Counted from the first letter of the stretch, positions 22,121 through 60,410 are shown. The stretch: DNA of 64,000 nt from an uncultured Pseudomonadota bacterium (GCA_963702315.1 CAVPCA010000049.1:9111-73110); one strand, 5' to 3'. Program-made: numbers and translations. Notes: generated by a model not told the origin, from the sequence alone.

Positions 22121-22188
22121 GTTCTTACCCCTTAACCTTCTCTTCAAAAGAGGGTTATTTTAAGACAGTAGAAGCAAATTAGCAAGCT

Positions 22189-22492
22189 CTATTGGTGCTT
22201 ATGCTGATGTTTTAGAAATGACTTAGATCTCAACCTAGAAATACCCTCAGCTAAGATAATTTTCATTAGCGATTGATAAGGTACATCTCCTTTATTAGCA
22301 AAAATTTTTAGCTCATTAAAAAGCGCTTCCGGTAATCGTAAAGAAATAGTTTTAGTCGAAGCTTTTAGATTGGGAAACTTTGCCAGCTTTGCTTTCGACC
22401 AATCTATATGATTAGTCGAGTCATGTTCTTGCCAATATGCTCTTTCTTCATCTTCATTATTAAATTTTGGAATCTTCTTTAGCTTTGCTCAT
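22189..22492 (-). CDS. brnA: BrnA-type antitoxin (ribbon-helix-helix), 5-prime end frameshifted
   Basis: The open frame reads ..KKIPKFNNEDEEERAYWQEHDSTNHIDWSKAK..ISLRLPEALFNELK..VPYQSLMK. The ATG at 22492 is in the +1 frame. Deleting one base of the T3/A3 run at 22484-86 joins them as MSKLKKIPKF... Confidence 0.6.
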
Positions 22493-22799
22493 AAATTTTA
22501 CGCTCCTTTCTATGCATATCACGAGCTGAAATGACTCTTATCAGAGAATTTCTCACTGTAAAAGAAATAAATAGCTCGCGGTTATCATCCGTCCTACCCA
22601 AGGCATACATACGAGTCTCACTACTCGAATGTTTAATGTCTTCCGCTAATAAAAGCGGCTCATTAAAAAATATTTGCTCACATTCCCAATTGGAAACACC
22701 ATGCTTATTAGAGTTTTTATTGCGATTACCTTCATCCCAATCGAAACCAACAATCTGCTGAAAAAATATGTCCTTCATATACGAATTGTATATTATCAC
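22479..22799 (-). CDS. brnT: BrnT-type toxin (DUF497)
   Basis: FDWDEGNRNKNSNKHGVS...RVISARDMHRKERKIY is the DUF497 signature. It overlaps the brnA start. Confidence 0.75.
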   Translation of the reverse strand: MIIYNSYMKDIFFQQIVGFDWDEGNRNKNSNKHGVSNWECEQIFFNEPLLLAEDIKHSSSETRMYALGRTDDNRELFISFTVRNSLIRVISARDMHRKERKIYEQS

Positions 22800-22966
22800 A
22801 ATATATAATCAACCTCGCAAAGTCTTTATGCAAAAATCTTTATCGATCTTATTGCTGATCTTTTTTTAAGCTTAGGTTGTTTATGTGCTTAGCAATCTAG
22901 AGGTTTTAACTAATCGTTCGGCGATTTGACTTGACACCGGGGGGCAGACTCCCTAGCATGGTCTCA

Positions 22967-25232: not shown

Positions 25233-25334
25233 AATAATTTTACACTCAATTAAAAATTAAATCAAAAAATATAACTCATTTAAAATTCCCAAATTTGTTA
25301 GCGCGGGCACTCTTAAAGCCCTTCTCCCGCAAAA

Positions 25335-25416
25335 TGTCGGTGTCAGCCATAACATCTTCAGATGGTTATGTTGTTGTTTTAAATTGTTTTTTTTATTTCT
25401 AGTCATCAGTGACACC
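25335..25416 (-). repeat. GGTGTCA-ended ~80-bp repeat, copy R1
   Basis: TGTCGGTGTCAGCCATAACATCTTCAGATGGTTATG...CATCAGTGACACC is about 80 percent identical to 26447-26521. Its reverse complement resembles 32678-32756. Confidence 0.6.
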
Positions 25417-25425
25417 ACTATTTCG

Positions 25426-25446
25426 CAAATCCTGTCACCCCGATTT
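25426..25446 (+). repeat. direct repeat of the tRNA-Pro 3-prime end (att-like)
   Basis: CAAATCCTGTCACCCCGATTT is identical to 24045-24065. Confidence 0.85.
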
Positions 25447-25484
25447 TTTTCCTTGAACCACATGCGAAGCATCAAAATCACGGT

Positions 25485-25660
25485 ATTGAAAACCTAAATT
25501 AGCAGCAGCCTACGCAGAACTTTTGGGATATTCTAAAGAGCAGTTTATTCGCTTGTCCTTGCAGGATTTGATTGATCGGGATGGTTTTAATTTTAAGGTT
25601 GAACTCATTCCAGCAGAAAATAGAAAACTGCCGACAACAATACAGTCTCATCGTGAGTGA
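25485..25660 (+). pseudogene. possible remnant of a PAS-domain sensor gene
   Basis: An open frame with no start reads IENLNLAAAYAELLGYSKEQFIRLSLQDLIDRDG. This resembles the N-terminal PAS core. It is very short. Confidence 0.25.
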
Positions 25661-25677
25661 TACTACCCTCCCTGGTA

Positions 25678-25697
25678 CGGGGTGTGGCTCAGCCTGG
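25678..25697 (+). repeat. copy of the first 20 nt of tRNA-Pro
   Basis: CGGGGTGTGGCTCAGCCTGG equals 23989-24008. Confidence 0.75.
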
Positions 25698-25708
25698 GAA
25701 AGATTAAA

Positions 25709-26137
25709 TCAAATCACAGAATTTAAGAAATCAGGTTGGTATAATTTTAAAGCGGTATGTTTTGCATAAAAACTAAAATCTTGGTCCAGGGTAAATACTG
25801 GAATTTCTCGATTAATTGCCACTGCAGCGATTAAAAAATCCACATGAGAGCCTTGTATACCATGACTGCGGCAATGGTTAAACAACTCCGCTGCAAATTC
25901 AAAGTCCAAAGTTTCAAGCTGCAAATCCGGAAATGCCTCTAAATAAGACTTCAACTGATTAAATTGAACGGATGATTTAATCCCCGATAATAATTCTTGT
26001 CGAATTGATCCAAAAATAACGACTCTAGCGTTTGCAACTAAAGTTGCTAACTCATGAATATAATCCTGTAATTCAGCTGTAACCCCTTGTTTACGCAAGG
26101 CTAGAGACCAAACACTTGTATCCACTAAAACCGGCAT
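25709..26137 (-). CDS. vapC: PIN-domain toxin VapC
   Basis: 142 aa, MPVLVDTSVW with the acidic PIN residues. It overlaps the antitoxin stop by 1 nt. Confidence 0.85.
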   Translation of the reverse strand: MPVLVDTSVWSLALRKQGVTAELQDYIHELATLVANARVVIFGSIRQELLSGIKSSVQFNQLKSYLEAFPDLQLETLDFEFAAELFNHCRSHGIQGSHVDFLIAAVAINREIPVFTLDQDFSFYAKHTALKLYQPDFLNSVI

Positions 26138-26334
26138 TAACGATCCCTCTCATTTTTATAATTATATTTTGGATCATATTCAATGGTACCAAACAAGTTG
26201 AGGATTTTTTCTTGTTTATGACGTTGAATATATTCTTTTAAGGCAACATTCACTGTTTCTTTTTTAGTCTTGTGATGCCCAATGGTTTGTGCTTCATTTA
26301 ACAATTTATAATCAATTGCCAAGTTCGTAGCCAT
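26137..26334 (-). CDS. vapB: VapB-type antitoxin
   Basis: A small ORF upstream of and overlapping vapC. The start was trimmed to MATNLAIDYKLLNEAQ... Confidence 0.7.
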   Translation of the reverse strand: MATNLAIDYKLLNEAQTIGHHKTKKETVNVALKEYIQRHKQEKILNLFGTIEYDPKYNYKNERDR

Positions 26335-26446
26335 ATTTTTCTCCAAATCACTTGTTTCACACAATATATTACACAATGAAATGTGTGAATTCAAGTAATA
26401 GCCCCATTAACACCAATAGATACCGGCTTTTTCTGTAGTTTCCCTG

Positions 26447-26521
26447 CTGTCAGGCATAACATTTTTAGTATGTTATTGTTTTTTAAATTGTTTTTTTGCC
26501 TTCTAAGTGATTAGTGACACC
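26447..26521 (-). repeat. GGTGTCA-ended repeat, copy R2
   Basis: CTGTCAGGCATAACATTTTTAGTATGTTAT...GATTAGTGACACC aligns with R1. Confidence 0.6.
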
Positions 26522-26599
26522 CTATTCCCATTATTAGTACGCATAACCTATTCATTTTTAATGAGTTTTAAGAAATCTTTTTTTCAAAAGGCATTAATT

Positions 26600-26620
26600 T
26601 TTAATAAATTCTTAACATAG
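26600..26620 (+). promoter_or_regulatory. possible PmrA-type tandem half-sites
   Basis: TTAATAAATTCTTAACATAG has TTAAT and TTAAC starting 11 bp apart, about 140 bp upstream of the ATG at 26756. This is weak in AT-rich DNA. Confidence 0.2.
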
Positions 26621-26755
26621 GCTTGTTAATCTGTATTTAACTTGGTTAAAAACCAAACTGACTCTAAAAAGACCCAAGGATTCAAGCAATCAGGGCATAT
26701 AAAAGCATATGGATGGAAGCTGATTTTTTTAAAAACAAAAATGAGGAGCAAAATC

Positions 26756-29576
26756 ATGTTCGATCCATTCAAAGCTATGGCCCTAAAATCTCTTATGGAC
26801 CAAGGTGTAAACGCAGTAGGCAAACAAGCTATTCAACTAGTAACCATGATGGCTCCCAAAGAAAGTAAAGAGTCGACAATTAATGAAATGCCAATAATCA
26901 TTGGCGGATATACACCAGGAAGTGATAATAATAATTTTGTGAAATTGTGGGATAGTTTTCACAAAAGATTTTCTCCAAGCGATACCTTTAGAACAAATTT
27001 TGTGGGACGCTTCATTGGTAAAAACACTACTAAGTTATGTATATACAATGCTGTGGATATTGCAGAACACCCTAGAACATACCAAAATCTAATTTGTCAC
27101 AAAGTTGGAGAAATAATTCGCAATTGGGTTGAAACCGGCGATGACAAAAATACAAAATTAATTAATAACATTAAAACTTTTGCTGCTTCATTATTATGGA
27201 CTGCTATTATTATTGTTGATCAAAAACCAGCTGGGAGCCATACACTTAGATTATTTTTATTAGCAATACAAAGTATTTGCAATGAATTCATTAAAAACAC
27301 AGATTTAATACAATCAACTAATTGGTCTGGACATAAAACGAAAACAGCCTTAGAAGAAATCGTGGAAACCATCACTGAATATGTGAATGAATGCAACGCA
27401 GAAGATGCCAAAACTGAACTGCAACATAATGCCAAATGTTTTACAGAAACCTTAGAAGCGACCAATCAGGAATGTCGAATATTATCATTAAGACTCTTAT
27501 TTAATAAAACCCCGCTTCACTCTCTTTTTTCAAATACGAAAAACGAAGAGATTCTATTACGCACAAAAAATTACGAAGATTTTAAAGGAGAAACCTCTAG
27601 ATTGGGCGAATCAAATGTAGATTTGGCGCAGCTCATAAAGGACAAAGCGAATTACAATTTTGTGAAAAGAAGTATTTATTCAATCAAGTTCTCAACCCAA
27701 ATGATACCAGCGAACCTAATTCCAATGACAGAGAAGCGATCAAAAAAGGAATTGGCCCTATATATTCTCAATTAAACTTACCTGGGGGTGTAGGAGAGGA
27801 CGTTCTGGTAGCTTATATGGAAGTCTTATACGACTTCATTGCCGCAGTTAACGAAAGTACCCTTGTATTGGCTGAAATGGAGAAGATTCAAAAAATTCTA
27901 AATATAATGGGAGAATCTACACGAGCATTGGGCAAACCAACCTATTAAAGATACATTGGCAAGAGCCAATATAATGTTGACTGGGTTAGAAGAGAAATTG
28001 AAAGGCATTAAACAAAAAGGCGACGAGTTAAGCCAAAAAAAAGAGATGTCGGGGGAGTGGGATTCCCTTGTAAAATCCTTAATTTTTACATCCATAATGT
28101 TAGCGCATCCTGTGCCTCATCTAAGATATATATGCAAGAAATGAATAATGCGCTTAACCCAAGGCATGTATTAGAGAAATTTAAATCAGCAACAAAATAT
28201 TTAATAACCGCCTCCAAAGGAGAAGGAGATCGTATTTCTGAAGATGCGCAAGCTACTGCACACATGCTTAACCAGATATCAGGAAATTTAGAACAAGTTC
28301 TCGTTTCACATCCAGCTTCAAATCCTAGTCAAACAGAGGCAAGAATTGAAATAAAACTAGAAAGTAAAGATATTCAATCTATCGAAAACAACACTGATCT
28401 TTCAACCATCGTTAGAGTAAAGACAACCAAACCTGTTATCGAAAAATTGCAAGAGCTGAATAATAAAAACTTGATTAAATCTGATTTTGTATTGGCGACC
28501 CTGAGTAATTTTCATAAGCATCAATACCAGGCAAAGTTAACACTTGCAGACAATATACCTGGGTTTTCTACAAAAGTATTTGATGTCATTATCTAGCAAT
28601 CCAGAGAGTTACCTTAAAGATGAACATTCTTTTAGAAATCCGCTTTGTGTAAAATGGATGAATGAGATTAAAGATGCTTACAATAAGATGGAAACTGCCG
28701 AACACTTATGAACCAAGCTGTCAAGAAGAAGCGAATCAGTCTTTCCGTTTATAACGATCATATTGCTGCTCCTGTTGTTTTTGCTATCAGCATTTTAATT
28801 GGCTATGTAGAACGCATCAATCAATCAACCGCCAGGGGTGAAGGGCATGCAGTGGCAACTGCAATTGAGGCTGAAGAATTCAATCAAGTTCTTAATGCAT
28901 TTACCAGCATGAAGCTGTTTAAAGAAAATAATCCTATAAATAACATATTCACTAATTCATTAAACTCTTTAATTAAAATTCATAAAGATTTTGAGACAGA
29001 AAAAAATCTGATCAATGAACAAAAAACCATTTATTTAAATGCCAAAACATTGACAAGGGAATAAAGTCTATTTCTTTTGAGTACGATACGACTTTATTAG
29101 AAATATTATTAGGGAAATCTGTTAAATATATTTTTGCCCGCAAAACCTATATAGATTACATTAAAGAATCAAACGATTATGACTCCTTTAAAAAAAGGAT
29201 TAATGAAAAACTTACACCACAAAAACGAAAATTAGTGCTCAATGTCATTTCTGATAAAAACGAATTTTTATTAGTAAAATCCGTTTTTTACAACCTTCTC
29301 TTTCTGAAGCTCAAAATAAAGAAATTATTAAAAAACAACTCGAAAAAATCATCAATGTATGGGATTACCAAAGACAATACGAAGATTATCAGATATTAAT
29401 AAATGTAATAACAGATGCAACGCTTGATTTTATTGAGCTTAAAAAATTAATAGAGCATCATCAAAAAATGATAGCTATTTCAGCATATTGGGGGAAATTT
29501 AAGTGGTGTTCTTTACCAAGGTTTACAATCCTCCAATAAAAAAATTCTGGATTGTCTTTCCAGGATTAGGAAAAAC
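26756..29576 (+). pseudogene. chain of at least 7 same-strand ORF pieces that pass into one another by +/-1 frame changes; effector-like, no family recognised
   Basis: The pieces are 26756-27775, ~27661-27948, ~27933-28144, 28057-28596, ~28578-28709, 28708-29064, ~29058-29470 and 29475 onward. Each neighbouring frame is already open before the previous stop. Breaks coincide with runs such as A4 27665-68, T5 28083-87 and G5 ~29490. RBS GAGGAG lies 7 nt before 26756. Confidence 0.5.
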
Positions 29577-37940: not shown

Positions 37941-39173
37941 ATGATTAATAACGGAAATACTGCTTGGTTATTGCTTTCATCAGCGTGGGTGTTATTAATG
38001 ACTCCTGGAATAGCATTTTTTTATTCAGGCCTGGTATCCACGCGCAGCGTCCTGAACACCATCAATATGAGCTTTATTTGTTTAGCAGTTATCCCTTTAG
38101 TATGGGCGGTCATTGGATTTAGTTTAGCCTTTTCCACTGGAAATACTTTTATTGGTAGTCTTCAATGGCTGGGATTAAAAGGCATTGGGATTGCGACATA
38201 CCATGACCCTGTTGGAGTTCCTCAATACGCTTATGTGTTATTTCAAATGATGTTTGCTGTTATAGCGCCTGCTTTGATTTCAGGCGCCATTGTGGGACGC
38301 ATGAAATTTAAAGCCTATGTCATTTTTATTATTTTATGGAGCTTATTCATCTATACGCCTATAGCACATTGGGTATGGGGGCCTAATGGTTGGATTGAAA
38401 AATTAGGCTCTATCGATTTCGCCGGCGGCATGGTGGTACACATTAATGCTGGATTTGCAGCGCTGGTTGCCGCCATCATTTTAGGGCCTCGATTAACTGC
38501 AAATGAAAATATTCACGAAAGCCCGCATAATATTCCATTTGTTATCTTGGGCTGCTCCTTACTGTGGTTTGGCTGGTATGGGTTTAATGCGGGTTCTGCC
38601 TTAGCGGCTAATAGCCTTGCCAGCTTGGCATTTATAACCACTACCTTGTCTGCCTCCGCATCTATTTTTACCTGGACAATATTGTGTTGGTTGAGAGGCC
38701 ATCTGTCTTCTGCCATTGGCAAGGCATGTTCTGCTATCATTGGATTAGTTGCCATTACCCCAGCTGCAGGATATGTAAAACCCATGGGAGCAGTCTTGAT
38801 TGGTTGTGTAGGTGCAGTGATTTGTTATTACATGATGTTATATAGAAGTAAATTACTGAGAAAAATTGATGATACTTTGGATGTTTTTATCTGTCATGGC
38901 ATTGCTGGAGTAGTGGGATCCATTATGACTGGACTCCTCGCCACTAAAGCAGTTAATCCGGATGGCCCAAATGGCCTTTTCTATGGAAATCCGCACTTGC
39001 TCGTGCAGCAATTAATAGCAGTGGTTGCTACGATAGTCATGACTGTTGTTGGAACAGCGTTAATATTATGTCTTTTGAAAATTTTCATGCACATTCGCCC
39101 CAGCCAAGAAGAGGAATCACAAGGTATAGATATCAGCGAACACGGTGAAAATGCCTATGAACATTTGCCCTAA
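37941..39173 (+). CDS. amtB: ammonium transporter
   Basis: 410 aa with about 11 TM segments and the Amt signatures DFAGGMVVHINAG and LDVFICHGIAGVVG. Confidence 0.9.
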   Translation: MINNGNTAWLLLSSAWVLLMTPGIAFFYSGLVSTRSVLNTINMSFICLAVIPLVWAVIGFSLAFSTGNTFIGSLQWLGLKGIGIATYHDPVGVPQYAYVLFQMMFAVIAPALISGAIVGRMKFKAYVIFIILWSLFIYTPIAHWVWGPNGWIEKLGSIDFAGGMVVHINAGFAALVAAIILGPRLTANENIHESPHNIPFVILGCSLLWFGWYGFNAGSALAANSLASLAFITTTLSASASIFTWTILCWLRGHLSSAIGKACSAIIGLVAITPAAGYVKPMGAVLIGCVGAVICYYMMLYRSKLLRKIDDTLDVFICHGIAGVVGSIMTGLLATKAVNPDGPNGLFYGNPHLLVQQLIAVVATIVMTVVGTALILCLLKIFMHIRPSQEEESQGIDISEHGENAYEHLP

Positions 39174-40354
39174 TTATTTTGTGAAATAATCTTCTTGAGC
39201 ATACTCAGACTCTTTAAAATGACCGCGCCCAAAGTGAACAATAGCATTACCCAAGCGAAAGAATACAATGTGCCATTGTAAAATATACTGACTGTAGCAA
39301 TGCTAATAACTCCGCACCAACCCATTAAAAAAGAAAACAAAGCGACGCGAATGCCCATGGGTTGTTGAGTTGATTCTATACTTAATCGATTTAATGGAGC
39401 TAAAGATAGCCCACAGCCCAATTGAAAAACCATCAAGCTGATCACAATATAGAATAATCGGTTAGGCCAAATATAAGCGCAACTCACTGACATTATCATC
39501 CCAGCTAAAGCTACCGGCAGGCCAATTTTTAGAGTGCCCTCCACCCCTCGATAACGGATCAGAAATCTGATAGCCCAAGTTCCAATAATATAACTACTCA
39601 ACAGGAATATTTGGATAATACCGTACCACACGGGGGTTCGATGGAAATCCCGTATTATTAACAAAGGGCCGATCGGCATCCAAGCAATTGCCCCAGCGAA
39701 CAACAAACAGAAAGTCCCCACATTAATTAAAAACTGCTGATTACCAACAACCTGCCAATAATCCCTAAACACTTTACTTAAATTGAATTTTAATCTTTTT
39801 TCCGCAGGTAAACTCTCCGGCATCCAATGCCTTAACATCAAAACCAAAATGGCTCCCCATATGGCGAGGATGATGAACAACCAACGCCAACTGGCAAATA
39901 ATAATAAAACTCCTCCAAATAGGGGCCCCAATGCGGGAGCTAAAACGGCTACTCCACTCATCCAGGCTATGGTTTTCACAGCTTGTTCTGATTCTAAAAG
40001 CTCATGGATACTGGCATAGCCGGCGACAATAACAGCGCAAACCACCATACCTTGAAAAAATCTGGCGATGATCATCGTTGTGATGTCACCCGCCATAGCG
40101 CAAGCAGCGCTAGCAACGACAAATAATATACCGCTATACAAAAGAACTGGCCGTCGCCCAAAACGATCCGAGATGGGGCCTAAAATTAATTGCAAGGAAG
40201 CACTACCAATAAACCAGCCCGTCAAAGTCGTTTGCGCCATAGAAGAAGAAATTTTCAAATCATTCATAATGCTCGGCAAAGCCGGCAAATATAAATCATT
40301 CGACAAGTAAGCAGCCATTTCGTAAAAAACTAACAATAATGGGTAGATAAACAT
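39170..40354 (-). CDS. MFS transporter (Bcr/CflA-like drug efflux)
   Basis: 394 aa with 12 TM segments and the motif GPISDRFGRRPVL between TM2 and TM3. Confidence 0.8.
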   Translation of the reverse strand: MFIYPLLLVFYEMAAYLSNDLYLPALPSIMNDLKISSSMAQTTLTGWFIGSASLQLILGPISDRFGRRPVLLYSGILFVVASAACAMAGDITTMIIARFFQGMVVCAVIVAGYASIHELLESEQAVKTIAWMSGVAVLAPALGPLFGGVLLLFASWRWLFIILAIWGAILVLMLRHWMPESLPAEKRLKFNLSKVFRDYWQVVGNQQFLINVGTFCLLFAGAIAWMPIGPLLIIRDFHRTPVWYGIIQIFLLSSYIIGTWAIRFLIRYRGVEGTLKIGLPVALAGMIMSVSCAYIWPNRLFYIVISLMVFQLGCGLSLAPLNRLSIESTQQPMGIRVALFSFLMGWCGVISIATVSIFYNGTLYSFAWVMLLFTLGAVILKSLSMLKKIISQNN

Positions 40355-40413: not shown

Positions 40414-42675
40414 CTAAGTTTTTCCAGCACGGATCAGGCCGGCGAGGCCTGCTTCTTCTATGGCTTCTTCCATAAAGCCGCGGATTTCACTGGGTTCATC
40501 CATGATTAAAACTTGTTTGAGTAATGCTTTAGCCTTGGCTAAGGTGAAATTGCGGATCACCCATTTAACCCGCGGCAATGCGCGTGGACTCATGCTTAAC
40601 ACATCAAAATCCATGGCCATCAATAATATAACGGCTAACGGATCTCCCGCTAATTCTCCACAAATGCTAATCGGTCTGCGCGCTTTGTGACAACCCTTGA
40701 CGGCTTGATATAAAGCCCGAAAAACCGCGGGGTGAAAGCTGTGGTACGAACCGGCCACATGCGGATTATTACGATCGACTGCGAGTAAATATTGAATCAA
40801 ATCATTACTGCCCACCGATAAAAAATCGACGCGTTTTGCCATTTCATACGCCTGATAAACAGCAGCCGGCACTTCCACCATTAAACCAATTCTGGGCATT
40901 TTGAGCGCGGTAAAATCACTTTGTAATTCATGAAAAGCCTGTTTGATCAAACACAAAGATTGTTCCACTTCTGAAATCGAAGATATCATCGGCAACATAA
41001 TGGAAAGATTATCTAAACCCACGCTGGCGCTTAGCATGGCGCGCACTTGTTGCAGAAAAATTTCCGGATGCGCCAAACTCACGCGAATGCCACGCCAACC
41101 TAGAAAAGGATTGGATTCTTCCACAGGAAAATACGGTAAATTTTTGTCGCCGCCGATATCCAAAGTGCGCATCACCACTGGTTTTGGTGAAAAGGTTGCG
41201 AGCAATTGATGGTACATCGTGTGTTGTTCTTTTTCGCTGGGAAAACGATCGCGCATCATAAAAGTGAGTTCAGTCCGGTACAGCCCTACTCCCTCAGCCC
41301 CGGCGCTTAAAGAGATTTCGCCATCTAGCGCTAATCCAGTATTCACATGCAATCCAATCGTGTGACCATCTAAAGTTTGGGCGGGCAAATGGCGCAACGC
41401 TTCAAGGTCTGCATCCATTTGTTTTTCTTCAACCATTAATGCTTGAAATTCTTTTTTCACTGCAGGCACCGGTGATATATAAACTTGTCCATTGTAACCA
41501 TCCACAATCAATTCTTTTTTAGATAATTGATCCATTGTAACCCCTGTAATTCCCATCACAGTGGGTAATCCTAATGCGCGGGCCAAAATCGCAACATGAG
41601 AATTCGCCGAGCCCGATCCAGAAACCACACCACTTAAATTCTCGCGTGGAACCTCCATAATACTGGTGGCCGTCACTTCTTCGCTTACCAAAATGGTATG
41701 TTTGGGATATTCCACATGTTCGGGCCTGGCTTGTTGCAAGTGCGAAAGCAATCGCCTGCCTAAATCTCTAAAATCCGCCGCCCGCTCGCGTAAATAAGCA
41801 TCTTCTAAAGATTCAAAATGCACGATGTGCCGTTTAATCACTTTTTTGAGCGCACCTTGCGCCCATTGGCCCGATTGAATTTCTTCAATGACTTCATTCA
41901 TGAGCGTGCGGCTATCCAAAATACGCATGTAAGCGTCAAACAACGCTTGTTCGGCCACTGAAAGCAAGGTTTGGGCCCGTACTTGCAAATGGTGAATTTC
42001 TTCACGCGCGGCCGCCAGTGCTTTTTCAAATAATCGGCATTCTTTTTTAATTTGTGTCGTAGGCCGGTCAGGTACGGCGTCTAAATCAGCAGGTGGATAA
42101 AAAACTTCGGCTTTGCCTATCGCCACCCCGGGCGCTCCAGGAATTCCGACAAGTTCCCGCAGGACTTCCCGCCCTTTGGGTTTGATCACCAATTGCAGAG
42201 CGCCTTTCTCACACGCTTCTGCAAGATCACCCGCCAATTGCACACTCAAGGTAACCATTTGAGCGGTAATTTCATTATCAAACCGGCGACGGCGGCGTTG
42301 GTGAATGGTTAAGACCCCCACCAAATTGCCATTGTCAATCAATGGGATGCCAAGAAAACCTCTATACTCGGGTTGGCCCAACTCCATTTCATCCAGATAA
42401 CTATGAGCGTCTGCCAAATTAACCGGTTCTTCGCGTTCTCCGACTAATCCAATCAACCCTTCGCCCAATTTGGTGCGGAGCTTTCCGACCAGACTGGTTT
42501 TAAATCCAGATGCCGCCAACAGTACATACTCAGCGTGCTTCTCATCTAACAGGTAAATACAACTGGCGTCAAGTGGTAATTCGTCGCAAAGATATTTAAC
42601 AATCGTCGACAATGCTGATGGCAAATCTGCCACCAAATCCATTTCGTGAACCATGCGACTTAAAATAGTGATCAA
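40414..42675 (-). CDS. ptsP: phosphoenolpyruvate-protein phosphotransferase PtsP (EI-Ntr)
   Basis: An N-terminal GAF domain, a phospho-His region GSANSHVAILARALGLP, and a PEP-utilising C-terminal barrel. Confidence 0.9.
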   Translation of the reverse strand: MITILSRMVHEMDLVADLPSALSTIVKYLCDELPLDASCIYLLDEKHAEYVLLAASGFKTSLVGKLRTKLGEGLIGLVGEREEPVNLADAHSYLDEMELGQPEYRGFLGIPLIDNGNLVGVLTIHQRRRRRFDNEITAQMVTLSVQLAGDLAEACEKGALQLVIKPKGREVLRELVGIPGAPGVAIGKAEVFYPPADLDAVPDRPTTQIKKECRLFEKALAAAREEIHHLQVRAQTLLSVAEQALFDAYMRILDSRTLMNEVIEEIQSGQWAQGALKKVIKRHIVHFESLEDAYLRERAADFRDLGRRLLSHLQQARPEHVEYPKHTILVSEEVTATSIMEVPRENLSGVVSGSGSANSHVAILARALGLPTVMGITGVTMDQLSKKELIVDGYNGQVYISPVPAVKKEFQALMVEEKQMDADLEALRHLPAQTLDGHTIGLHVNTGLALDGEISLSAGAEGVGLYRTELTFMMRDRFPSEKEQHTMYHQLLATFSPKPVVMRTLDIGGDKNLPYFPVEESNPFLGWRGIRVSLAHPEIFLQQVRAMLSASVGLDNLSIMLPMISSISEVEQSLCLIKQAFHELQSDFTALKMPRIGLMVEVPAAVYQAYEMAKRVDFLSVGSNDLIQYLLAVDRNNPHVAGSYHSFHPAVFRALYQAVKGCHKARRPISICGELAGDPLAVILLMAMDFDVLSMSPRALPRVKWVIRNFTLAKAKALLKQVLIMDEPSEIRGFMEEAIEEAGLAGLIRAGKT

Positions 42676-42792
42676 TTTTTTTCCTTATTACTGATTGAAT
42701 TATACTAAAAAGATATGCTGCAGGTATTGTTTCATAAATTACAATTTTTTGTCTAGAAGAATTGTTTTTTTTCTCTTGACAATACGCTATAA

Positions 42793-42839
42793 AGTCCATA
42801 TCTTGTGTTTATATCAATTAAAAATCCCAATATATTGGG
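42793..42839. promoter_or_regulatory. two NrdR-box-like palindromes overlapping a sigma70-like promoter
   Basis: Box 2 is CCCAATATATTGGG (42826-39, a perfect palindrome). Box 1 is AGTCCATATCTTGTGT (42793-808, 11 of 16 to the recalled consensus). Their centres are 32 bp apart. TTGACA at 42775-80 is followed 17 nt later by TATCTT. Confidence 0.5.
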
Positions 42840-42873
42840 GTTTTGCTTAGTATTTGAAAAATAAGGAACTTCC

Positions 42874-45696
42874 ATGTCAAACCCGACAGCTTTTGAAAAA
42901 GTTTCATCATTTGAAGAAATTCGTTACTCACCTTTTTCCCATGGTCAACAACCCGGAAGCTTGCACGTCATCCGTCGTAACGGCTCGGTCACTGAATATG
43001 ATGCAAATCGCATTATGGTGGCGATGAAAAAAGCGTTTGTCGCCGTTGAAGGCAATGATGTGGTGCACGCCGAGCGTATTCAAAAATTGGTGGAGCAACT
43101 GACACAGCAAGTCAACGATTGTTTTAAACGCCGTTGGCGGCCGGCGGCACAATTCATATTGAATCCATTCAGGACCAAGTGGAATTGGCGCTAATGCGCG
43201 CGGGAGAACAAAAAGTGGCGCGCGCCTACGTTCTCTATCGTGAAGCACGTCATCAAGAACGTTTAGCACAGAGCGCACAAATTGCGCATTTGGCAGAAAC
43301 TTACAAAGTGACCCATCCCGATGGTTCACAAACACCGTTGGATCCGCAATGGTTGCAACAAATTGTTGAACAAGCTTGTAAAGGCATCGCTGCTGTTACG
43401 CCACAACCCATTTTAAAAGATGTCAAACAAAATCTGTTTGATGGCGTGGCCATTAAAGATATTTATAAAGCTTTGGTTATGTCTGCCCGCACTTTGGTTG
43501 AAACCGAACCCAATTACAGTTACGTCACTGCACATCTCTTGTTGCAGGATATTTACAATGAAACTTTAATTACGCTGGGCCTGGAAGGCGATATGAACCG
43601 CTTGACGCAATTTGATTGGTATAAAAAAGCGTTTCATAAATTTATTGAGCGCGGTATCCAAGAAGAGTTATTGCATGCCAATTTGAAAGATTTTAACTTA
43701 GAGCAACTCGCTGCAGCACTTTGTGTCGAGCGCGATCAAACCTTGGTTATTTAGGCTTACAAACTTTATACGATCGCTACTTTATCCATTCACGTGGTCA
43801 GCGCATTGAATTACCACAAGTGTTTTTTATGAGGATCGCGATGGGTTTAGCGCACTGCGAAGGTAATGCGCGTAATGAAAGAGCGATTGAATTTTATCAT
43901 CTGCTGTCTTCATTCGACATGATGTCTTCCACACCAACGCTATTTAACTCAGGCACTACGCGACCACAGTTGTCGAGCTGCTTTTAAGCACCGTGCCCGA
44001 TCATTTGGAGGGCATCTTTAGCGCGATTAAAGACAACGCTATGTTGTCTAAATTTGCCGGCGGTCTAGGTAATGACTGGACTTACGTGCGCGCGATGGGT
44101 GCTCATATCAAAGGCACCAACGGTAAATCATTGGGTGTAGTGCCGTTCCTTAATGTTGCTGATGCAACGGCCGTGGCTGTTAATCAAGGCGGAAAACGTA
44201 AAGGCGCTCTTTGTTCTTATTTAGAAACTTGGCACATGGATATTGAAGAATTTCTGGAATTACGCAAAAACACGGGTGATGAGCGGCGACGCACACATGA
44301 TATGAACACCGCAAACTGGATTCCAGATCTTTTCATGAAACGTGTACTTGAAAAACAGGATTGGACCTTGTTTTCTCCTGATGAAGTCAGTGATTTACAC
44401 GACTTATTTGGCGAACCCTTTGAAAAAGCCTATGTCGCCTATGAAAAACAAGCCAAATTAGGCAAAATCAGAAGCCGCACGGTGCCTGCAGTGGCGCTGT
44501 GGCGCAAAATGTTGAGTCTTTTGTTTGAAACGGGCCATCCGTGGATCACCTTTAAAGACGCCTGCAATTTGCGTTCCCCGCAACAACATGCGGGTGTGAT
44601 ACACAGTTCCAACTTATGCACAGAAATTACTTTGAACACCAATGCTGAAGAAATTGCGGTTTGTAATTTGGGTAGCATTAACCTGGCTAAACACATGGTG
44701 AATGGCCAATTAGATACTGAAAAACTTAAAAAAACCATTAAAACAGCCATTCGCATGCTGGATAATGTGATCGATATTAACTACTACAGCGTGCCGCAAG
44801 CGAAAAACTCTAATTACAAACACCGTCCTATTGGCTTAGGCATTATGGGTTTCCAAGATACATTGTATGAACAACGCTTACCCTATGCTTGCGAAGCCAC
44901 CGTTGAATTTGCCGATCGCTGCATGGAATACGTCAGTTACTATGCCATCTTAGCTTCTTGTGAATTGGCGCAAGAACGCGGCGTCTATTCTAGTTATGAA
45001 GGCTCGTTGTGGAGCCAAGGGATTTTACCGATAGATTCTATCGCCTTACTGAAAAAGTCACGCGGACAATATCTTGAGCAAAATGAAAGTCGAACGCTGG
45101 ATTGGGATGCATTGCGTGAAGTGGTGAAAAAATTTGGTATGCGTAATTCCAATGTCATGGCGATTGCGCCCACCGCCACCATTGCCAATATTTGCAATGT
45201 CACTCAATCTATCGAACCGACTTATCAAAATTTATTTGTGAAATCGAACTTATCGGGTGAATTCACCGTAATTAATCCCTATTTGGTGCAAGACCTAAAA
45301 GCCTTGGGATTATGGGACACCGCCATGGTGCATGATTTGAAGTACTACAACGGCAGCTTAGCTAAAATCAAGCGCATACCAGCGGATATTAAAGCTTTAT
45401 ATGAAACTGCTTTTGAAATCCACCCTGAGTGGTTAGTGAAGTCTGCATCCCGCCGGCAAAAGTGGATTGATCAATCACAATCACTCAACTTATACATGGC
45501 GGAGCCTTCCGGAAAGAAACTGGATATTTTATATCGCAAAGCTTGGCTCTTGGGATTAAAAACGACTTACTATCTTCGCAGTATGGGTGCGACGGGCACT
45601 GAAAAAGCCACCATTACCGATTATGCTTTAAATGCGGTGGATACAATGCCCAAAGCGTGTTCCATCGACGACCCAGAATGCGAAGCGTGTCAATAA
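42874..45696 (+). CDS. nrdA: ribonucleotide reductase class Ia alpha subunit, broken into four ORFs by three single-base frame changes
   Basis: ATP-cone [36 protein letters not shown], the catalytic NLCTEI and a C-terminal CEAC. Breaks lie at ~43125-43140, ~43741-43755 and the T4 run at 43982-85. Confidence 0.9.
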
Positions 45697-45707
45697 AGGA
45701 GATCACT

Positions 45708-46889
45708 ATGTCTGAGAATTTCAATTTAAATTGGGATGATTCTTACCACAAAGAATCCGTAAAAGCGGCCCGTTTAGCAAAGAATTTTATTGCTGAAGAT
45801 GAAGACGATGGCGGCGATGGTGGCAGTACAGGCCTTGAAGAATTAGAAATGGGTGCAGCACGCATTCGCGTGGATGATAAACGCATCATCAATTGCCGCG
45901 CGGACCTCAATCAATTAGTGCCCTTCAAATACAAATGGGCGTGGGAAAAATATCTGGCGGGTTGCGCCAACCATTGGATGCCGAATGAAATTAATATGTC
46001 AGCGGATATCGCCCTATGGAAAGATCCCAATGGCTTAACCGAAGACGAAAGAACTATCATCAAACGCAGTCTCGGGTTTTTCTCCACAGCTGATTCTTTG
46101 GTGGCCAATAATTTGGTGTTAGCGGTTTACCGTCACATTACCAATCCCGAATGCCGCCAATATTTATTGCGTCAGGCGTTTGAAGAAGCATTACACACGC
46201 ATGCTTACCAACATGTGATTGAAAGTTTAAGTTTAGATGAAGCTGAAGTTTTCAATATGTACCGTGAATTACCGTCTGTAGCCAAGAAAGCCGCCTGGGC
46301 GATTCCTTACACCCGCAGTCTAGCAGATCGCCAATTCCGCACGGGAACTCCGGAAAATGATCAGCGTTTATTGCGTGATTTAATTGCTTTTTATGTGGTG
46401 TTTGAATCTATTTTCTTTTATGTGGGCTTTACGCAAATTTTAGCGATGGGCCGCCGCGGGAAAATGACCGGCACTTCTGAACAATTTCAATATATTTTAC
46501 GCGATGAATCGATGCATGCGAATTTCGGTATTGATGTGATTAATCAAATCAAAATTGAAAACCCGCATTTGTGGACTAAAGAATTCCAAACTGAAGTGAT
46601 TAACATGATCAAAGACGGTGTTAATTTAGAATACGAATACGCCAAAGACACCATGCCTCGTGGTATTTTAGGCTTAAACGCCAATTTATTTAAAGATTAT
46701 TTAGAATATATTGCCAATCGCCGTTTCGTGCAGATTGGTTTACCTGAACAATATCCCGGTGTAACGAACCCTTTCCCGTGGATGAGTGAAATGATGGACC
46801 TCAAAAAAGAGAAAAACTTTTTCGAAACCCGCGTTATCGAATACCAAGCCGGCGGTACATTAAGCTGGGATGAAGAAGATTCCAACTAG
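45708..46889 (+). CDS. nrdB: ribonucleotide reductase beta subunit
   Basis: The start at MSENFNLNW is preceded by AAGGAG. The iron ligand/radical motif is [11 protein letters not shown], with the radical Tyr present. Confidence 0.9.
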
Positions 46890-46995
46890 AGCATCAAGAC
46901 AATAACACTATATTTCCCGAAAAAAACTCATATGGCAGACAAAATTTATGGTATAATTTAGAGTTTTTAGAAAGTAGTTTTTTTGGAGAGATTTG

Positions 46996-47265
46996 ATGCC
47001 TTTGTATGAGTATAAATGTTCAGCCTGTAGTCAGGCTTGTGAATATTTACAAAAATTTACGGATCCAGAAATAAAATTGTGCCCAAATTGTGGAAAAGAA
47101 GCGTTGAAAAAACAGGTTTCAGCGACCCAATTCCAATTGAAAGGGACAGGCTGGTATGTCACTGACTTCAAAAACAGCAATAAACCTGAGCAAAAGAGTA
47201 AAGAAACGCCCGATACTAAAACAACAGAAAAAACCACCCCGAAAACCGAGGAAAAAAGTTCATGA
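46996..47265 (+). CDS. FmdB-family zinc-ribbon protein
   Basis: MPLYEYKCSACSQ...CPNCG with a Lys/Thr/Glu-rich tail. Confidence 0.8.
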   Translation: MPLYEYKCSACSQACEYLQKFTDPEIKLCPNCGKEALKKQVSATQFQLKGTGWYVTDFKNSNKPEQKSKETPDTKTTEKTTPKTEEKSS

Positions 47266-47555
47266 GCTTAACCACCCATATTACCAAATCGATACGCCGT
47301 TATTTAATTGCCGGTGTTTTGGTCTGGTTACCCATTGTGATCACTTATTTTATTGTCCACTTTATCGTGCACTTATTAGATGGGACCATGGAGTTGCTAC
47401 CACAAAAGTATCATCCCGCACAGTTTATCGGTTATGAAATCCCCGGCGCAGGCGTGCTGCTGACCGTGCTTATTTTACTGATGACGGGCTTGCTGGTCAC
47501 CAACTTTATCGGCCACAAATTGCTATCGATTTGGGAAAAATTATTGTCTGTTACG
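47262..47555 (+). CDS. DUF502-family membrane protein, N-terminal ~95 codons only (cut by junction)
   Basis: There is an ATGA overlap with the upstream gene and two TM segments. Family-like ...NFIGHKLLSIWEKLL is followed by unrelated GC-rich sequence. Confidence 0.6.
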
Positions 47556-47559
47556 GTTG

Positions 47560-48188
47560 AGGCTTGCGAGTGAATAGGTTTCAGGATCTTTCCGGGTCAG
47601 AACGCAGGGACCCTGCTTCCTGCCGCTAACCTGATCCGGAGTTCCATGGGCCAGTTGCTCAATCCACGCCGCCATCGATTCCTTCGGCTCGCCCATCGCT
47701 GTATTCGACACGTCCTCCCACGCTTCCCACGTTTCCAGCCGCTCCGCATATGCGGCGCGGGCCCTGGGCAGAATAGAAGTGCCCAGCCCCAATCGCAGCG
47801 GCGGATTTTCTGCGTCCACAAGCTTCAGGATGGCTTCTGCCGTCGCCTCCGGATCGCCGCGTTCAACATTTGCCAGATGCGTCAGGAACTGCTTCCGAAT
47901 TCCGCGTATGGTTCCAGCGCATCCGCGATCTGTGAGGATTTTCCGAAGTCGGTTGCGTAGGCTCCGGGTTCAACAAGCGTCACCTTCAACCCGAACGCCC
48001 TCACCTCCTGCGCGAGGGATTCGTGGAGCGCTTCGACAGCCCATTTTGTAGCGCAATAGAAGCCGATGAGTGGCAATGCCGTTACCCCAAGTCCGCTCGA
48101 GACACCGAGAATGTGACCGCTCCCTTGTTTCCGCAACAAAGGCAGAGCCGCTGGTAGCACTCGGACCATGCCGAAGTAGTTCAACCAA
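47560..48188 (-). pseudogene. fragment of a classical short-chain dehydrogenase/reductase, lacking the Rossmann N-terminus and frameshifted
   Basis: NYFGMVRVLPAALPLLRKQGSGHILGVSS...YCATKWAVEAL...VTLVEPGAYATDF has the YxxxK active site. There is a frame change near 47895-47905, then ..RKQFLTHLANVERGDPEATAEAILKLVDAENPPLRLGLG. The segment is visibly GC-rich. Confidence 0.7.
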
Positions 48189-49051
48189 GTATCCAAAAAC
48201 TCATCAGAGTTGGGCGCAACGAAGTTGTGGTAGTCCTGCGAGTCGACAAGGAGAAGGGTGAGCACCAGAACTAGATTAATCAACGAAACAAATACTGAAC
48301 GGGATCGCAGGGTACATTGATCTTTCAAAACGAAGAGTGTCGCCTGAAGATATCATCAAATGCGAGGAGAGATATAATAAGAGCAAGATGGTTCATTCAA
48401 TTATGCGACATGTGGCAGAAAAGACTCAACATCCTATTGAAGATCTTTATGAGCGCATTGGCTGGCCACTGAACAAGAAGTACGGACATGCGGTAGATGC
48501 TTTCAAGCTCTCAATAACGTAGGTACAGACTTTGATCCATTTCGGAAATTTGCTAATCATCTTTTAGCAATCCCGACGTCTGGCAAGAAGTTTCATTTCC
48601 CAACGATGTCGTTGCCGAAGAACTGAAATCCTACATCGGAAAGCGTCTTACACCCCAGCCTACAAAGGTCCGAGCAGATGTTGAGGTTACATGTTTTGGA
48701 TATGAAGGAATCGATGCTGTCAAAACAGCGCTACGAACAGCTGAAGCTCGAAATACCCCGGATAACCAGGTGAAGGTTAAACTTGTCTCGCCACCACTAT
48801 ATGTCCTTACAAGCACATGCCTAGAGAAAGCTGTTGGAATTCAAACACTAGAAGCGGCGATCGTTGACATCCGGTCCAACATCGAGGGGTCTGGTGGTAA
48901 TTGCATCGTAAAGATGGAGCCAAAAGCGGTCACAGAGAATGATGATGCCGAGCTGCAGGCATTAATGGAGAAACGTGAGAGAGAAAACGCAGAGGTCAGC
49001 GGAGATGAGAGCATGAGTGAAAGCGACGAAAATGCGGTCGAGGTGATGTAA
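48189..49051 (+). CDS. SUI2: translation initiation factor eIF2 alpha subunit, 5-prime third missing; exons 48189-48257, 48311-48518, 48568-49051
   Basis: SIQKLIRVGRNEVVVVLRVDKEKG / YIDLSKRRVSPEDIIKCEERYNKSK... / NPDVWQEV...KVKLVSPPLYVLTS. Introns are GTGAGC..ACTGAAC..CAG and GTAGGT..TGCTAAT..TAG. The S1 domain start and Ser51 region are absent. Confidence 0.85.
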
Positions 49052-49347
49052 AGGCGTTCTGGGCTATATCAAAAGCATTGTGATCAGAATTTGCATTGCG
49101 GGCGCATAGAAGGGCTATAGAGCCAAATGCTGCAGCGAACGACCTGTGTCTTTTTAAGAACAGTCATAAGTTATGAAAAGTAGTCAAAACGTTAAAAAAT
49201 GTCGTCAGTCTCTTCATGAAATGGATTTCTTGACAAGGCTGCTCGCGAGGCTGAGCTGATGGAAAGTAAGCGAGATTTTTGAGGATGAGCACCAAATCGA
49301 AAGCTAACGACCTCCCGTGTTGGTACCAGAGTCTGAACCCCACCACC

Positions 49348-49986
49348 ATGTCCTCGAACCGCATGTTTTCCTTCTTCAAACGAAATACAACATGGGGTAA
49401 ATCTTTCCATGACTTCAATTACCGATTGTTCATTTTCATGACATGGGTACCCGCCGTGATCTTCTTCAATGGAAATGTGGGAGAGTTGACTCGGATCAAC
49501 GGCCCATCTATGTACCCGTATTTGAACACCAGCTATAACGAAGATCTTAAGAAAGATCTGTGCTGGGTCAGCAAATGGAATCCGACTCGAAATCTGCAGA
49601 GAGGGATGCTAGTCTCTTTTCAGTTAGTTATATGGAGGAGAACTTTCGTCACAGTACTGACAATAAGTAATAGAAGTCCAAATAACCCCGAAAAACTTGC
49701 TATAAAGCGAGTCATTGCTCTTGAGGGAGATGTGGTATACACTAGAGCTCCTTGTCCTCTACCAACGGTGCAAGTCCCTATCAGCCATGTCTGGGTGGAA
49801 GGTGATAATAGGGACAAATCGTTGGATAGCAACAGTTATGGACCTCTCCCAATGAGCCTAATCCAAGGAAAGCTTACCTACGTTTTGTGGCCGTGGAAGA
49901 GCTCGGGGCCGATACATTGGAGACAATTCAAGGGCAAGACGAGGGTGATTGCAGGCCGCAGGCAGGATGCACCGAATTGGGATTGA
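49348..49986 (+). CDS. IMP2: mitochondrial inner membrane protease subunit (Imp2-like signal peptidase); exons 49348-49622, 49674-49986
   Basis: GPSMYP (catalytic Ser), KRVIALEGD (Lys) and GDNRDKSLDSNSYGP. The 51-nt intron is GTTAGT..TACTGAC..TAG. Confidence 0.7.
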   Translation: MSSNRMFSFFKRNTTWGKSFHDFNYRLFIFMTWVPAVIFFNGNVGELTRINGPSMYPYLNTSYNEDLKKDLCWVSKWNPTRNLQRGMLVSFQLVIWRRTFVTVLTISNRSPNNPEKLAIKRVIALEGDVVYTRAPCPLPTVQVPISHVWVEGDNRDKSLDSNSYGPLPMSLIQGKLTYVLWPWKSSGPIHWRQFKGKTRVIAGRRQDAPNWD

Positions 49987-50239
49987 TAATATTTGATGGT
50001 TTGCGGACAAACTCTTCTCTGGATAAGATCTCGTTTCCATCAACCATATCCGCCCACGCTTGCTCAAGATACAGCTCTAGAAATCTCTCCTTAGCCTTGC
50101 GTTCGATTTCGTCTCCGTTCGTGAGCAGAATGAGAGAAATTCTATCACAGCAAGTCTCCCATCATAAACAATTTCCTTGCTCTGTCTGTTGATCTAGCCT
50201 GGTGGCATAGTAGCCTCCGTCAGATGTCGAGTTTATAAG

Positions 50240-50455
50240 CATTAGTGGTCGTCAGAATTCGTGGCGTAAAGCTTGAGTTTCAATGTACTGTAACTTCTGG
50301 AACATTTGTGAAGTGGCGAGCCACTACTTTTCAGATTGTTCCTCAGATCAGGGAAGATTCAAAAACGCAAAATGACGGTTAGGCTCTAAATGTTCCTCGG
50401 ATAACAGTACATTGAAAACCAGTATTGCGTCACGGATTCTGACACCCGCTGGTGA
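50240..50455. mobile_element. 216-bp fungal MITE, copy A
   Basis: ~50-bp terminal inverted repeats ...AGTGGTCGTCAGAATTCGTGGCG..TTTCAATGTACTGTAAC / inverse. It shares its internal sequence with copies B and C. Confidence 0.8.
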
Positions 50456-50940
50456 GAGGATACTGTGACGGTAAACGTGGCTTGATATTGGAGTCAGAAT
50501 GGGATAAAAAGCAATTTCAGGCGCAGAAATTGGCATATGACAGAAAATATTTGGCCGTATTGGAAGAGACAAATCTAAATACAGGAAGCGAAAACCGATC
50601 CCTTTTAAACGTATCAAGAGCCTCTTCAATGTCCAGAGTGGGCGGGTACAATGAAACGAAGCAGACGATTCTTACACGTTTCAAAAGCTCTTTAGTGTCT
50701 AAAGAGAGCTGGTACAATGGAATGGAAACCATAGCTACCAGCCGAGAAATCTCAATTTTGTGTCCCAGCAAGGGCTTGTTATCCAATGCTGAGAATGATT
50801 ATTATTGCAGAGTTTCCTATCTCCGTAACAGTTCATAGTAGACCCACGTGGTATCCATGCTCCACGGGATCCCTTCCCAGGATGCCGACGTCCTTGTATT
50901 TATCATCATCGATTCATTTCTCTTTCCTATTCTATTCTCC

Positions 50941-52457: not shown

Positions 52458-52673
52458 TCACCAGCGGGTGTCAGAATTCGTGACGCAATACCCGGTTTCA
52501 ATGTACTATAACTCATGGAAAATTCGTAAAGCGACGAGCCACTGCTTTTTAGATTGTTCCTCAGATCAGGGAACAATTATAAAAGCAAAATGGCAGTTGA
52601 GCTCTAAATGTCCCTCGAGCTATAGTACATTGAAAGCCAGCATTCCGTCACGAATTCTGACAACCACTGGTGA
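52458..52673. mobile_element. 216-bp fungal MITE, copy B
   Basis: TCACCAGCGGGTGTCAGAATTCGTGACGCAATACCCGGTTTCAATGTACTATAAC ... inverse end CCACTGGTGA. Confidence 0.8.
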
Positions 52674-57300: not shown

Positions 57301-57540
57301 TCTAAGTTTTCAGTCATTTGTGCAGACAGAGGAAGAGAGAGATGGGGGAGAGCGCACGGTGGAGGTGGAAACATGTAAGGTTCATTTGATTTAGCGGCAT
57401 TACGGCGTTGAACACCCATAGCATAGTGTTGCACAATGGTGCATTCACCATCTCGTTTTTAGAGCCTTTGATACCAAGAAATGAAGTCACGATTCGCATT
57501 GCTTATTCTCGTAGTCCAAGGCTCATTGACACCCTTTACA

Positions 57541-57756
57541 TCACCAGTGGTTGTCAGAATTTGTGAGGCAATACTGGTTCTCAATGTACTATAGCTCAAG
57601 GGACATTTAGAGCCTAACTGCCATTATTGCTTTTTAAATGTTCCCGGGCCTGAGGAACAATATGAAGAGTAGTGACTCTTCGCTTTACGAAAGTTCCATA
57701 AGTTATAGTACATTGGAACGCAGCTTTGTGTCACGAATTCTGACAACCACTAGTGC
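57541..57756. mobile_element. 216-bp fungal MITE, copy C (internal part inverted relative to B)
   Basis: TCACCAGTGGTTGTCAGAATTTGTGAGGCAATACTGG...GTCACGAATTCTGACAACCACTAGTG. Confidence 0.8.
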
Positions 57757-57845
57757 ATGCATGAGTAAACAGGACTTCATCTCCTTACTAAACTTTGCGA
57801 GTCTAATCGTAAACAGGAGGCTGAATCATTACATGATATACCAAT

Positions 57846-59518: not shown

Positions 59519-60410
59519 ATGGCAACTTCTCACGGCGAAGTGCTGGAGGCTCTTTTGGATGCCCAGAACTCCCATGAGCTGTCTATTATCAAACTCAGTG
59601 AACCGATTTCCGGCGCACTCAAGCAGCACGGTGCAGAGCGAACGTCAGACGTGTCTGCGGAGGTATTCGAGAATCCAACTCCAGCAAGTTTAGAGGCGGA
59701 CTTAGCACATTACAAAGTAAGTCAGTATACCATAGTTGAAGTCTTAATCGCTGATTCATCGATAGGAACTCTTCTCGAAACTTCGGTTCTCATACCTCGA
59801 ACAAGTCACCAAAGAGAAATTTATACGCGCCATCGTTGGTGATCCACCTCTGGTAGTAGAGCATCAAGAGAATGTTGAACTCGAGGAGTCTCTTGCTGTC
59901 GCAAAATCTGCATTGAAAGCACAGAAGACGGAGGTTGCAGAGCTGGTCGCGGAGTTAGAGGCGAGAGGCCGAGAGTTATGTCGAAAATACGAGAACATTC
60001 AGATGCAGACGGCACAGCTTCAGGAGCTGCCAGAGAGAATTGAGGCTCTCAAGCTTAGTGTTGAGGAGTTGAGGGCAGCTCAACAACCTGGTTCGAATCC
60101 GACTTTAAACTTGCCCTTGGAGAAGACGCTAGCATTAGTAGAAGAGCGAGAGAGGGAAAGAGCTGAACTAGACAGGCAGCTGGAGCAACTTCAGGCTATG
60201 CTTCCACGAAAAACTCGGGAGTTAGAAAGGTTAAATGCTGAATTGCAACCCTTGGAGGTCAAGAGACTTGGAAGTACCGCTTCGGCTAGAGAAGCCAAGA
60301 GGAGAAAGGAGGAGGCTCTTGGTGGAGTTGGTGACGATTTGGAGGAGCGAGGTAGGTGGTGGAGAGGTGTCGAAAGTGGATTGAAAGGCATGCTAGGCGT
60401 GGAGACTTGA
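59519..60410 (+). CDS. coiled-coil protein (possibly kinetochore Sos7-like); exons 59519-59716, 59766-60410
   Basis: ...LEADLAHYK | ELFSKLRFSYLEQVTKEKFIRAIVGDPP... followed by a long heptad-rich region. The intron is GTAAGT..GATAG. The family name is a weak recollection. Confidence 0.5.

Follow-up and report, generated by a model that had tools for sequence, protein, structure and literature searches.

Long-read metagenome assemblers are known to yield chimeras that cross phyla or even domains, sometimes joining more than three organisms, and they also yield sequence that is supported by no read (bioRxiv 10.1101/2025.04.22.649783). In the chimeras described by Trigodet et al., GC content, gene taxonomy and gene integrity shift abruptly at the breakpoint, and more than two organisms, including members of different domains of life, are merged; the join described here is like them in both respects, and their 'non-existent sequence' is comparable to a short, source-less stretch found at our locus (bioRxiv 10.1101/2025.04.22.649783). 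Whereas those authors diagnose their chimeras by read clipping, the present diagnosis uses independent assemblies and reference loci. A related problem is the eukaryotic contamination of prokaryotic metagenome-assembled genomes (MAGs) and of GenBank records, at which tools such as GUNC and Tiara are aimed (PMC12313526), with which our case shares the deposition of fungal ORFs in a bacterial record. Unlike separable contaminant contigs, however, the fungal part is here fused to at least 47.5 kb of true bacterial sequence, and per-contig classifiers therefore tend to pass such a contig.

Bacterial and eukaryotic sequence also adjoin each other in genuine inter-domain insertions, such as endosymbiont-to-host nuclear transfers. 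Real insertions of this kind recur in different reads and samples, and no third, unrelated lineage lies next to them. Unlike them, the locus described here has native, uninterrupted counterparts for all three donors in other assemblies. A truncated pseudogene of eIF2-alpha offers a further comparison, since it too would present a 5'-truncated coding sequence without S1 domain and Ser51. Unlike a pseudogene, the fragment found here keeps 253 codons, introns, splice sites, stop codon and downstream neighbour intact and is 98% identical to the functional loci of its relatives; it bears no decay, and its truncation coincides exactly with the beginning of foreign DNA.

The sequence under study, referred to below as the window, is the whole stretch of 64,000 nucleotides that was analysed. 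Of the window's ORFs, ten bacterial and three fungal ones are each recorded on an 80,857-nt contig (NCBI; most also ENA). The fungal ORFs tied to this contig are Imp2, the eIF2-alpha 3' ORF and a 135-aa ORF, the 90% cluster of which includes the window's 165-aa ORF at 59,913-60,410. Because bacterial and fungal ORFs share one contig of this length, the chimera is internal to a single deposited contig and was not stitched together from separate records. Exact look-ups of the truncated DUF502 product, the MFS transporter ORF and a fungal 288-aa ORF in the protein collection gave no match, probably because of other start-codon calls or pseudogene status. The 80,857-nt contig comes from an environmental metagenome, most likely one of soil, and apparently belongs to a prokaryotic genome bin.

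The contig consists of at least four joined pieces, namely a low-GC proteobacterium (at least 47.5 kb), an orphan segment (80 nt), part of a short-chain dehydrogenase/reductase (SDR) gene of Acidobacteriaceae type (553 nt) and a Helotiales fungus (at least 15.8 kb); their features are collected in Table 1. Gene-level taxonomy switches abruptly from the proteobacterium, as represented by its relatives L004 and L011, to the Acidobacteriaceae SDR and then to the Helotiales fungus. The GC content runs from about 0.40 through 0.55-0.64 to about 0.47, with shifts at the junctions only, and the correlation of tetranucleotide profiles flips once, at 47.5-48.2 kb, and nowhere else in the window. Three genes (DUF502, SDR and eIF2-alpha) are severed exactly at the two junctions, and searches with tblastn found their missing parts nowhere in the whole window.

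Table 1. Features of the window, with positions counted from its first letter.
Feature	Position	Strand	Remarks
Bacterial segment	1-47,549		Dense intron-free genes
VapBC pair	25,709-26,406		In low-GC stretch
1,014-aa ORF	29,577-32,621		Without Pfam match
IS66-family transposase	33,103-34,623		In low-GC stretch
Last 3.3 kb of proteobacterial segment	44,226-47,549	+	nrdA 3' part, nrdB, Zn-ribbon gene, DUF502 5' part
DUF502 gene, codons 1-96 of 221	47,262-47,549	+	Pfam DUF502; cut at junction 1
Orphan segment, 80 nt	47,550-47,629	.	Between bacterial end and SDR
SDR fragment, Acidobacteriaceae type, residues 107-290 of 291	47,630-48,182	-	tblastn and DNA alignment
Filler 'aacc', 4 nt	48,183-48,186	.	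Unlike SDR and fungal references, base by base
Fungal segment	48,187-64,000		Introns; eIF2-alpha, Imp2-like S26 protease, DUF7730/F-box gene, RSN1/CSC1-type channel
eIF2-alpha exon 2, 3' part, codons 58-81 (SIQKLIRVGRNEVVVVLRVDKEKG)	48,187-48,257	+	Fungal homology from 48,187
eIF2-alpha exon 3	48,311-48,518	+	tblastn residues 81-150
eIF2-alpha last exon	48,568-49,051	+	Stop codon 49,049-49,051
eIF2-alpha introns	48,258-48,310 and 48,519-48,567	+	Both GT..AG
Imp2-like mitochondrial inner-membrane protease (Peptidase_S26)	49,285-49,986	+	Native downstream neighbour of eIF2-alpha

The gene cut at junction 2 (48,183-48,187) encodes eIF2-alpha and, like eIF2-alpha genes in general, would be single-copy and essential. 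Positions 48,188-48,262 of the plus strand translate to SIQKLIRVGRNEVVVVLRVDKEKG, and the spliced product comprises 253 amino acids, residues 58-310 of 310. It matches the full Pfam profile EIF_2_alpha (PF07541) at 7e-37, with the middle and C-terminal domains present, and is 94% identical to the Rhynchosporium protein, followed by those of Clarireedia, Blumeria and Pseudogymnoascus (310-aa Leotiomycetes proteins). An earlier note on this DNA had recognized eIF2-alpha on the plus strand from 48,189; the identity stands, and the start is corrected to 48,188. Homologues of the protein have both PF00575 (S1) and PF07541. As the note had also stated, the RRRIR motif, the Ser51 loop and the S1 domain are missing: the fragment lacks residues 1-57 (MSLTNCRFYEEK...ILLSELSRRRIR), which hold RRRIR, the loop and most of the domain. 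Searched against the whole window in any frame, these 57 N-terminal residues returned noise only (best tblastn E = 0.57), which disposes of the suggestion that the 5' exons might lie upstream in a frame that had been missed.

Comparison with the Rhynchosporium locus (L001) and 11 closer contigs places the break within exon 2, right after ...LSELSRRRIR, in keeping with the claim that the gene is truncated inside an exon. The comparison set for this junction was made up of ten fetched ENA contigs (MEGAHIT, SPAdes) and one 81.5-kb JGI contig. All 11 match the window at 97.6-98.5% identity, and all do so from 48,187 exactly. Upstream of this position every one of them reads ...CGTCGTATCCGA natively (...CTCTCGAGACGTCGTATCCGA/AGTATT..., with the slash at the break) and continues with the rest of exon 2, intron 1, exon 1 (MSLTNCRFYEEKYPEIDSFVMVNVKQ) and then the NTE1 patatin gene, a synteny shared by the Rhynchosporium locus. 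At about 98% rather than 100% identity, the fungal references come from close relatives of the donor and not provably from the same strain. A 93-aa ORF at the 3' end of eIF2-alpha (48,770-49,051) is present on the 80,857-nt contig and on others (18 in one count, 22 in another); the ten fetched ENA contigs are among the 22. The fragment is a homologue of the family but an incomplete gene, devoid of promoter, start codon, S1 domain and Ser51.

Farther downstream, the window is colinear with its close fungal relatives over 48,187-50,111 only. About 600 nt of the relatives' sequence is missing at 50,111, and a hybrid MITE-like element of about 215 nt is found at 50,238-50,462. The left half of this element and its left flank resemble a copy downstream of Imp2, and the right half together with a 127-nt right flank resembles a copy about 10 kb away (L022 1609-1953). 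At 50,583/50,584 the window jumps, with reversal of orientation, to a region that has its native place about 9 kb upstream of eIF2-alpha, and from 50,584 it stays colinear with this inverted region to the window end at 94-96.5% identity. As a result of this switch, NTE1, an amidohydrolase gene and a Mito_carr neighbour are absent from the window. A real MITE-associated inversion and a further repeat-mediated misjoin are equally possible as the origin of the breaks between 50,111 and 50,584, which leave the verdict on junction 2 unaffected. In protein clustering at 90% identity or more, the Imp2 ORF groups with a protein of Hyaloscypha hepaticicola (Helotiales).

Several further observations were made in the fungal segment. 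The MITE-like family, with elements of about 215 nt and long terminal inverted repeats, is represented at 50,238-50,462, 52,459-52,673 and 57,538-57,757, and as single-stranded DNA the element is predicted to fold to -59.8 kcal/mol (z = -11.8). Two orthologous JGI contigs (L023 and L024) lack the copy at 52.46 kb, which is therefore a polymorphic insertion. Near the end of the window, a conserved block at 63,754-63,999 shows 73-74% DNA identity to positions 450-693 of the Rhynchosporium contig, about 9.4 kb upstream of eIF2-alpha, and at about the corresponding place the JGI relative L024 has an ORF with a faint FAD_binding_4 match. A coiled-coil ORF at about 60.0-60.4 kb is likewise present in NCBI and ENA as a product of the 80,857-nt contig and represents database contamination.

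Upstream of eIF2-alpha, the minus strand reads LNYFGMVRVLPAALPLLRKQGSGHILGVSS...YCATKWAVE (LNYFGMVRV...YCATKWAVE). The earlier assignment of these bases to a reverse-strand SDR, made from the motif NYFGMVRV, was borne out by a Pfam match to positions 107-190 of 195 of adh_short at 1.8e-17, far beyond chance. At the DNA level the fragment is 92-97% identical to five soil-metagenome contigs (L005-L009, from ENA, JGI and Logan). The homology ends sharply at 47,630 and 48,182 (48,181 for L009), and all five contigs run natively past both ends. Seventeen substitutions separate the fragment from L007, with only about five amino-acid changes (against P0121); because the differences are mostly synonymous, they reflect real strain divergence and not sequencing noise. 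A 1-nt deletion between 47,897 and 47,898 (CCGAA, against CCGGAA in every reference) shifts the frame. The catalytic YCATK (YxxxK) is present, but the fragment offers no uninterrupted Rossmann and catalytic frame: residues 1-106, the N-terminal Rossmann or NAD(P)-binding half, are absent from the window by tblastn, and the fragment also ends short of the final residue and its stop codon. The 90%-identity protein cluster of the SDR holds a protein from a Silvibacterium sp. MAG, and a Terracidiphilus protein is 87% identical, so that the donor is an Acidobacteriaceae-type soil bacterium. Of the piece of about 630 bp that the earlier note had proposed to trace, the 553 nt of SDR are thus of Acidobacteriaceae type.

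The same note had treated the GC-rich piece as a single SDR fragment; this holds for 47,630-48,182, but not for the 80 nt and the 4 nt on either side. The 80-nt orphan remained unmatched in searches of the window, all 25 fetched loci and the phage and plasmid collections, did not match adapter sequences, and as a 22-mer was absent from JGI and IMG/VR contigs. From the stop codon onward, the five SDR contigs have a conserved 3' flank in common (..GGAATAAGGATAGGATCTATACC..), which the window lacks. Descent of the orphan from the native SDR 3' flank of a divergent strain was considered and is unlikely, given the other flank that is common to the five contigs of 92-97% identity. The orphan may stem from a fourth donor, or it may be sequence non-existent in the sample.

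On the other side of the orphan, the bacterial segment carries genes for NAD-glutamate dehydrogenase, PtsP, AmtB, nrdAB, rplU/rpmA, toxin-antitoxin pairs and an IS66 transposase. Among the genomes of the GTDB collection, the nearest is represented by a 2.18-Mb contig (L004, 'MAG: uncultured proteobacterium MFD04434.bin.1.80'), which is colinear with 40,421-47,540 of the window at 77.6% DNA identity. At junction 1 (47,549/47,550) the DUF502 protein of L004 goes on ...EKLLSRIPLIRNI, whereas the window reads ...EKLLS and then, past the junction, VTVEACE and a stop; residues 97-219 of DUF502 are nowhere in the window (tblastn). The native gene is full-length in L004 and also in a 3,820-nt Logan contig from run ERR10755948 (L011), in which the Zn-ribbon gene adjoins DUF502. 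Positions 1-3324 of L011 equal 44,226-47,549 of the window at 100% identity, with 0 mismatches and 0 gaps. From 47,550 L011 diverges completely and carries an intact 221-aa DUF502 (..EKLLSRIPLIRNIHSAAKQVV..), followed by the start of the next gene. Being identical up to 47,549 and native thereafter, L011 represents the same bacterial strain, independently assembled and without junction 1. A second Logan contig of the same run is 100% identical to 37,610-39,262.

Some features of the bacterial side deserve mention in their own right. The nrdA gene (42,874-45,696) is broken into four ORFs by three single-base deletions relative to L004, located at about 43,139, 43,746 and 43,985, where at the last site a TTTT run is one base short; its neighbours, including nrdB, are intact in the window. 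These deletions, clustered 3.5-4.4 kb before the chimeric junction, look like consensus errors. Within L004 itself, at 8,000-9,600, three overlapping ORFs take the place of nrdB, and compared with the window nrdA carries several +1 insertions, which shows the indel load of a Nanopore-derived data set. The low-GC stretch at 25,000-34,700 (0.31-0.37) is probably a genomic island. A toxin-antitoxin pair of BrnT/BrnA type (CopG antitoxin) at 22,189-22,808 directly adjoins rplU/rpmA (21,438-22,159).

Searches for traces of integration or recurrence were made at both junctions. Around 46.8-48.9 kb, direct or inverted repeats and target-site duplications did not exceed chance. No mobile-element gene lies at either junction, the nearest transposase being IS66 at 33.1 kb, and there is no tRNA, the sole one of the window lying at 23,988. 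Neither microhomology nor overlap was found at either join, nor were N runs, adapters or barcodes. A junction-spanning 32-mer was absent from JGI metagenome contigs and IMG/VR, and among the related contigs (L011 and the 11 fungal ones) none carries the junction.

The join between eIF2-alpha and the SDR is almost certainly an assembly or library chimera within one deposited 80,857-nt contig and not a real feature. This verdict draws on the taxonomy of the pieces, the exact breakpoints, the shared deposited contig and the native genomes that continue otherwise, all of which were directly observed. A three-part chimera of bacterium, GC-rich fragment and fungus had been proposed in the earlier note. 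The chimera itself is upheld, with the native loci lying elsewhere, but the number of parts has to be raised to at least four. The note's judgement that the arrangement is non-biological agrees with the cut genes, the switch in composition and the uninterrupted native loci in independent assemblies.

As to how the artefact arose, a long-read route, through chimeric reads or a low-coverage assembler misjoin, is the probable one. In such a scenario, one or several chimeric long reads of ligated short fragments, or a misjoin in the graph of a low-coverage assembly, would have bridged two contig ends, connecting a real bacterial contig end to a real fungal one by way of small unrelated fragments. 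The resulting, mostly bacterial contig would then have survived eukaryote filters and been binned as prokaryotic. The closest related MAG (L004) comes from a Nanopore project, the pipeline of which drops contigs shorter than 3 kb and removes whole contigs classed as eukaryotic; as the contig is mostly bacterial, it would pass filters of both kinds. Compared with its relatives, the contig lacks single bases at four sites, three of them in nrdA and the fourth in the SDR fragment. These indels are clustered and not even, unlike what uniformly low long-read coverage would give, and the 3.3 kb covered by L011 are error-free, indicating that most of the consensus is very accurate.

By comparison, it is unlikely that the contig arose through a misjoin in a short-read de Bruijn assembly or in scaffolding, although the Logan contig that matches the bacterial segment at 100% identity was probably assembled from accurate reads and MEGAHIT or SPAdes produced many of the related fungal contigs. 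A graph misjoin needs a shared k-mer or repeat, and the absence of common sequence at either junction argues against one, just as the absence of N runs, which scaffolding leaves as gaps, argues against scaffolding. Moreover, single-base deletions such as those in nrdA and the SDR are atypical for a short-read consensus.

Plain end-to-end concatenation of a bacterial, a roughly 635-nt and a fungal contig, with the junctions as mere record boundaries, would produce sharp boundaries without overlap or microhomology, a middle piece sized like a small contig and, as at the ends of contigs, a broken gene on each boundary, all of which are seen. It is nevertheless very improbable, given that bacterial and fungal ORFs share one 80,857-nt record, that the middle piece is itself composite (the 80-nt orphan and 553 nt of SDR without the conserved native 3' flank) and that pipelines like that of the closest MAG discard contigs shorter than 3 kb.

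We give next to no credence to a biological junction, whether a bacterium with fungal DNA or a fungal chromosome in which a bacterial insertion cuts a spare eIF2-alpha, with an acidobacterial fragment at the border: nothing positive speaks for it beyond the fact that the three organisms could plausibly live together in soil, while DNA of three unrelated lineages comes together within 640 nt, the genes at the borders are all broken inside a codon or an exon, no integration signature is present, each piece keeps its donor's composition, a 100%-identical bacterium has the uninterrupted locus in an independent assembly (L011), the related fungi all have the intact locus, and the sequence was not found elsewhere (JGI contigs, IMG/VR). 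Equally far-fetched is the corresponding real molecule, in which a soil proteobacterium or associated DNA would have taken up, not long ago, at least 16 kb of Helotiales DNA with its introns, bordered by an acidobacterial gene fragment; if true, DNA would have passed from fungus to bacterium so recently that no decay has yet set in. A eukaryotic eIF2-alpha pseudogene was rejected, as it is contradicted by the preserved remaining exons, introns and neighbouring gene.

Read as an assembly or library chimera, the junction region contains nothing functional, and neither expression nor selection is expected there. The comparison with Logan and other independent assemblies proved a usable stand-in for read-level inspection. 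The junction has no biological importance of its own and matters for data hygiene only. The fungal eIF2-alpha fragment, the Imp2 protease and other fungal products are already in the NCBI and ENA protein collections under an otherwise bacterial record. Left unflagged, the contig could distort estimates of completeness and contamination, and it could prompt mistaken reports that bacteria have eukaryote-like genes or that DNA has been transferred between kingdoms.
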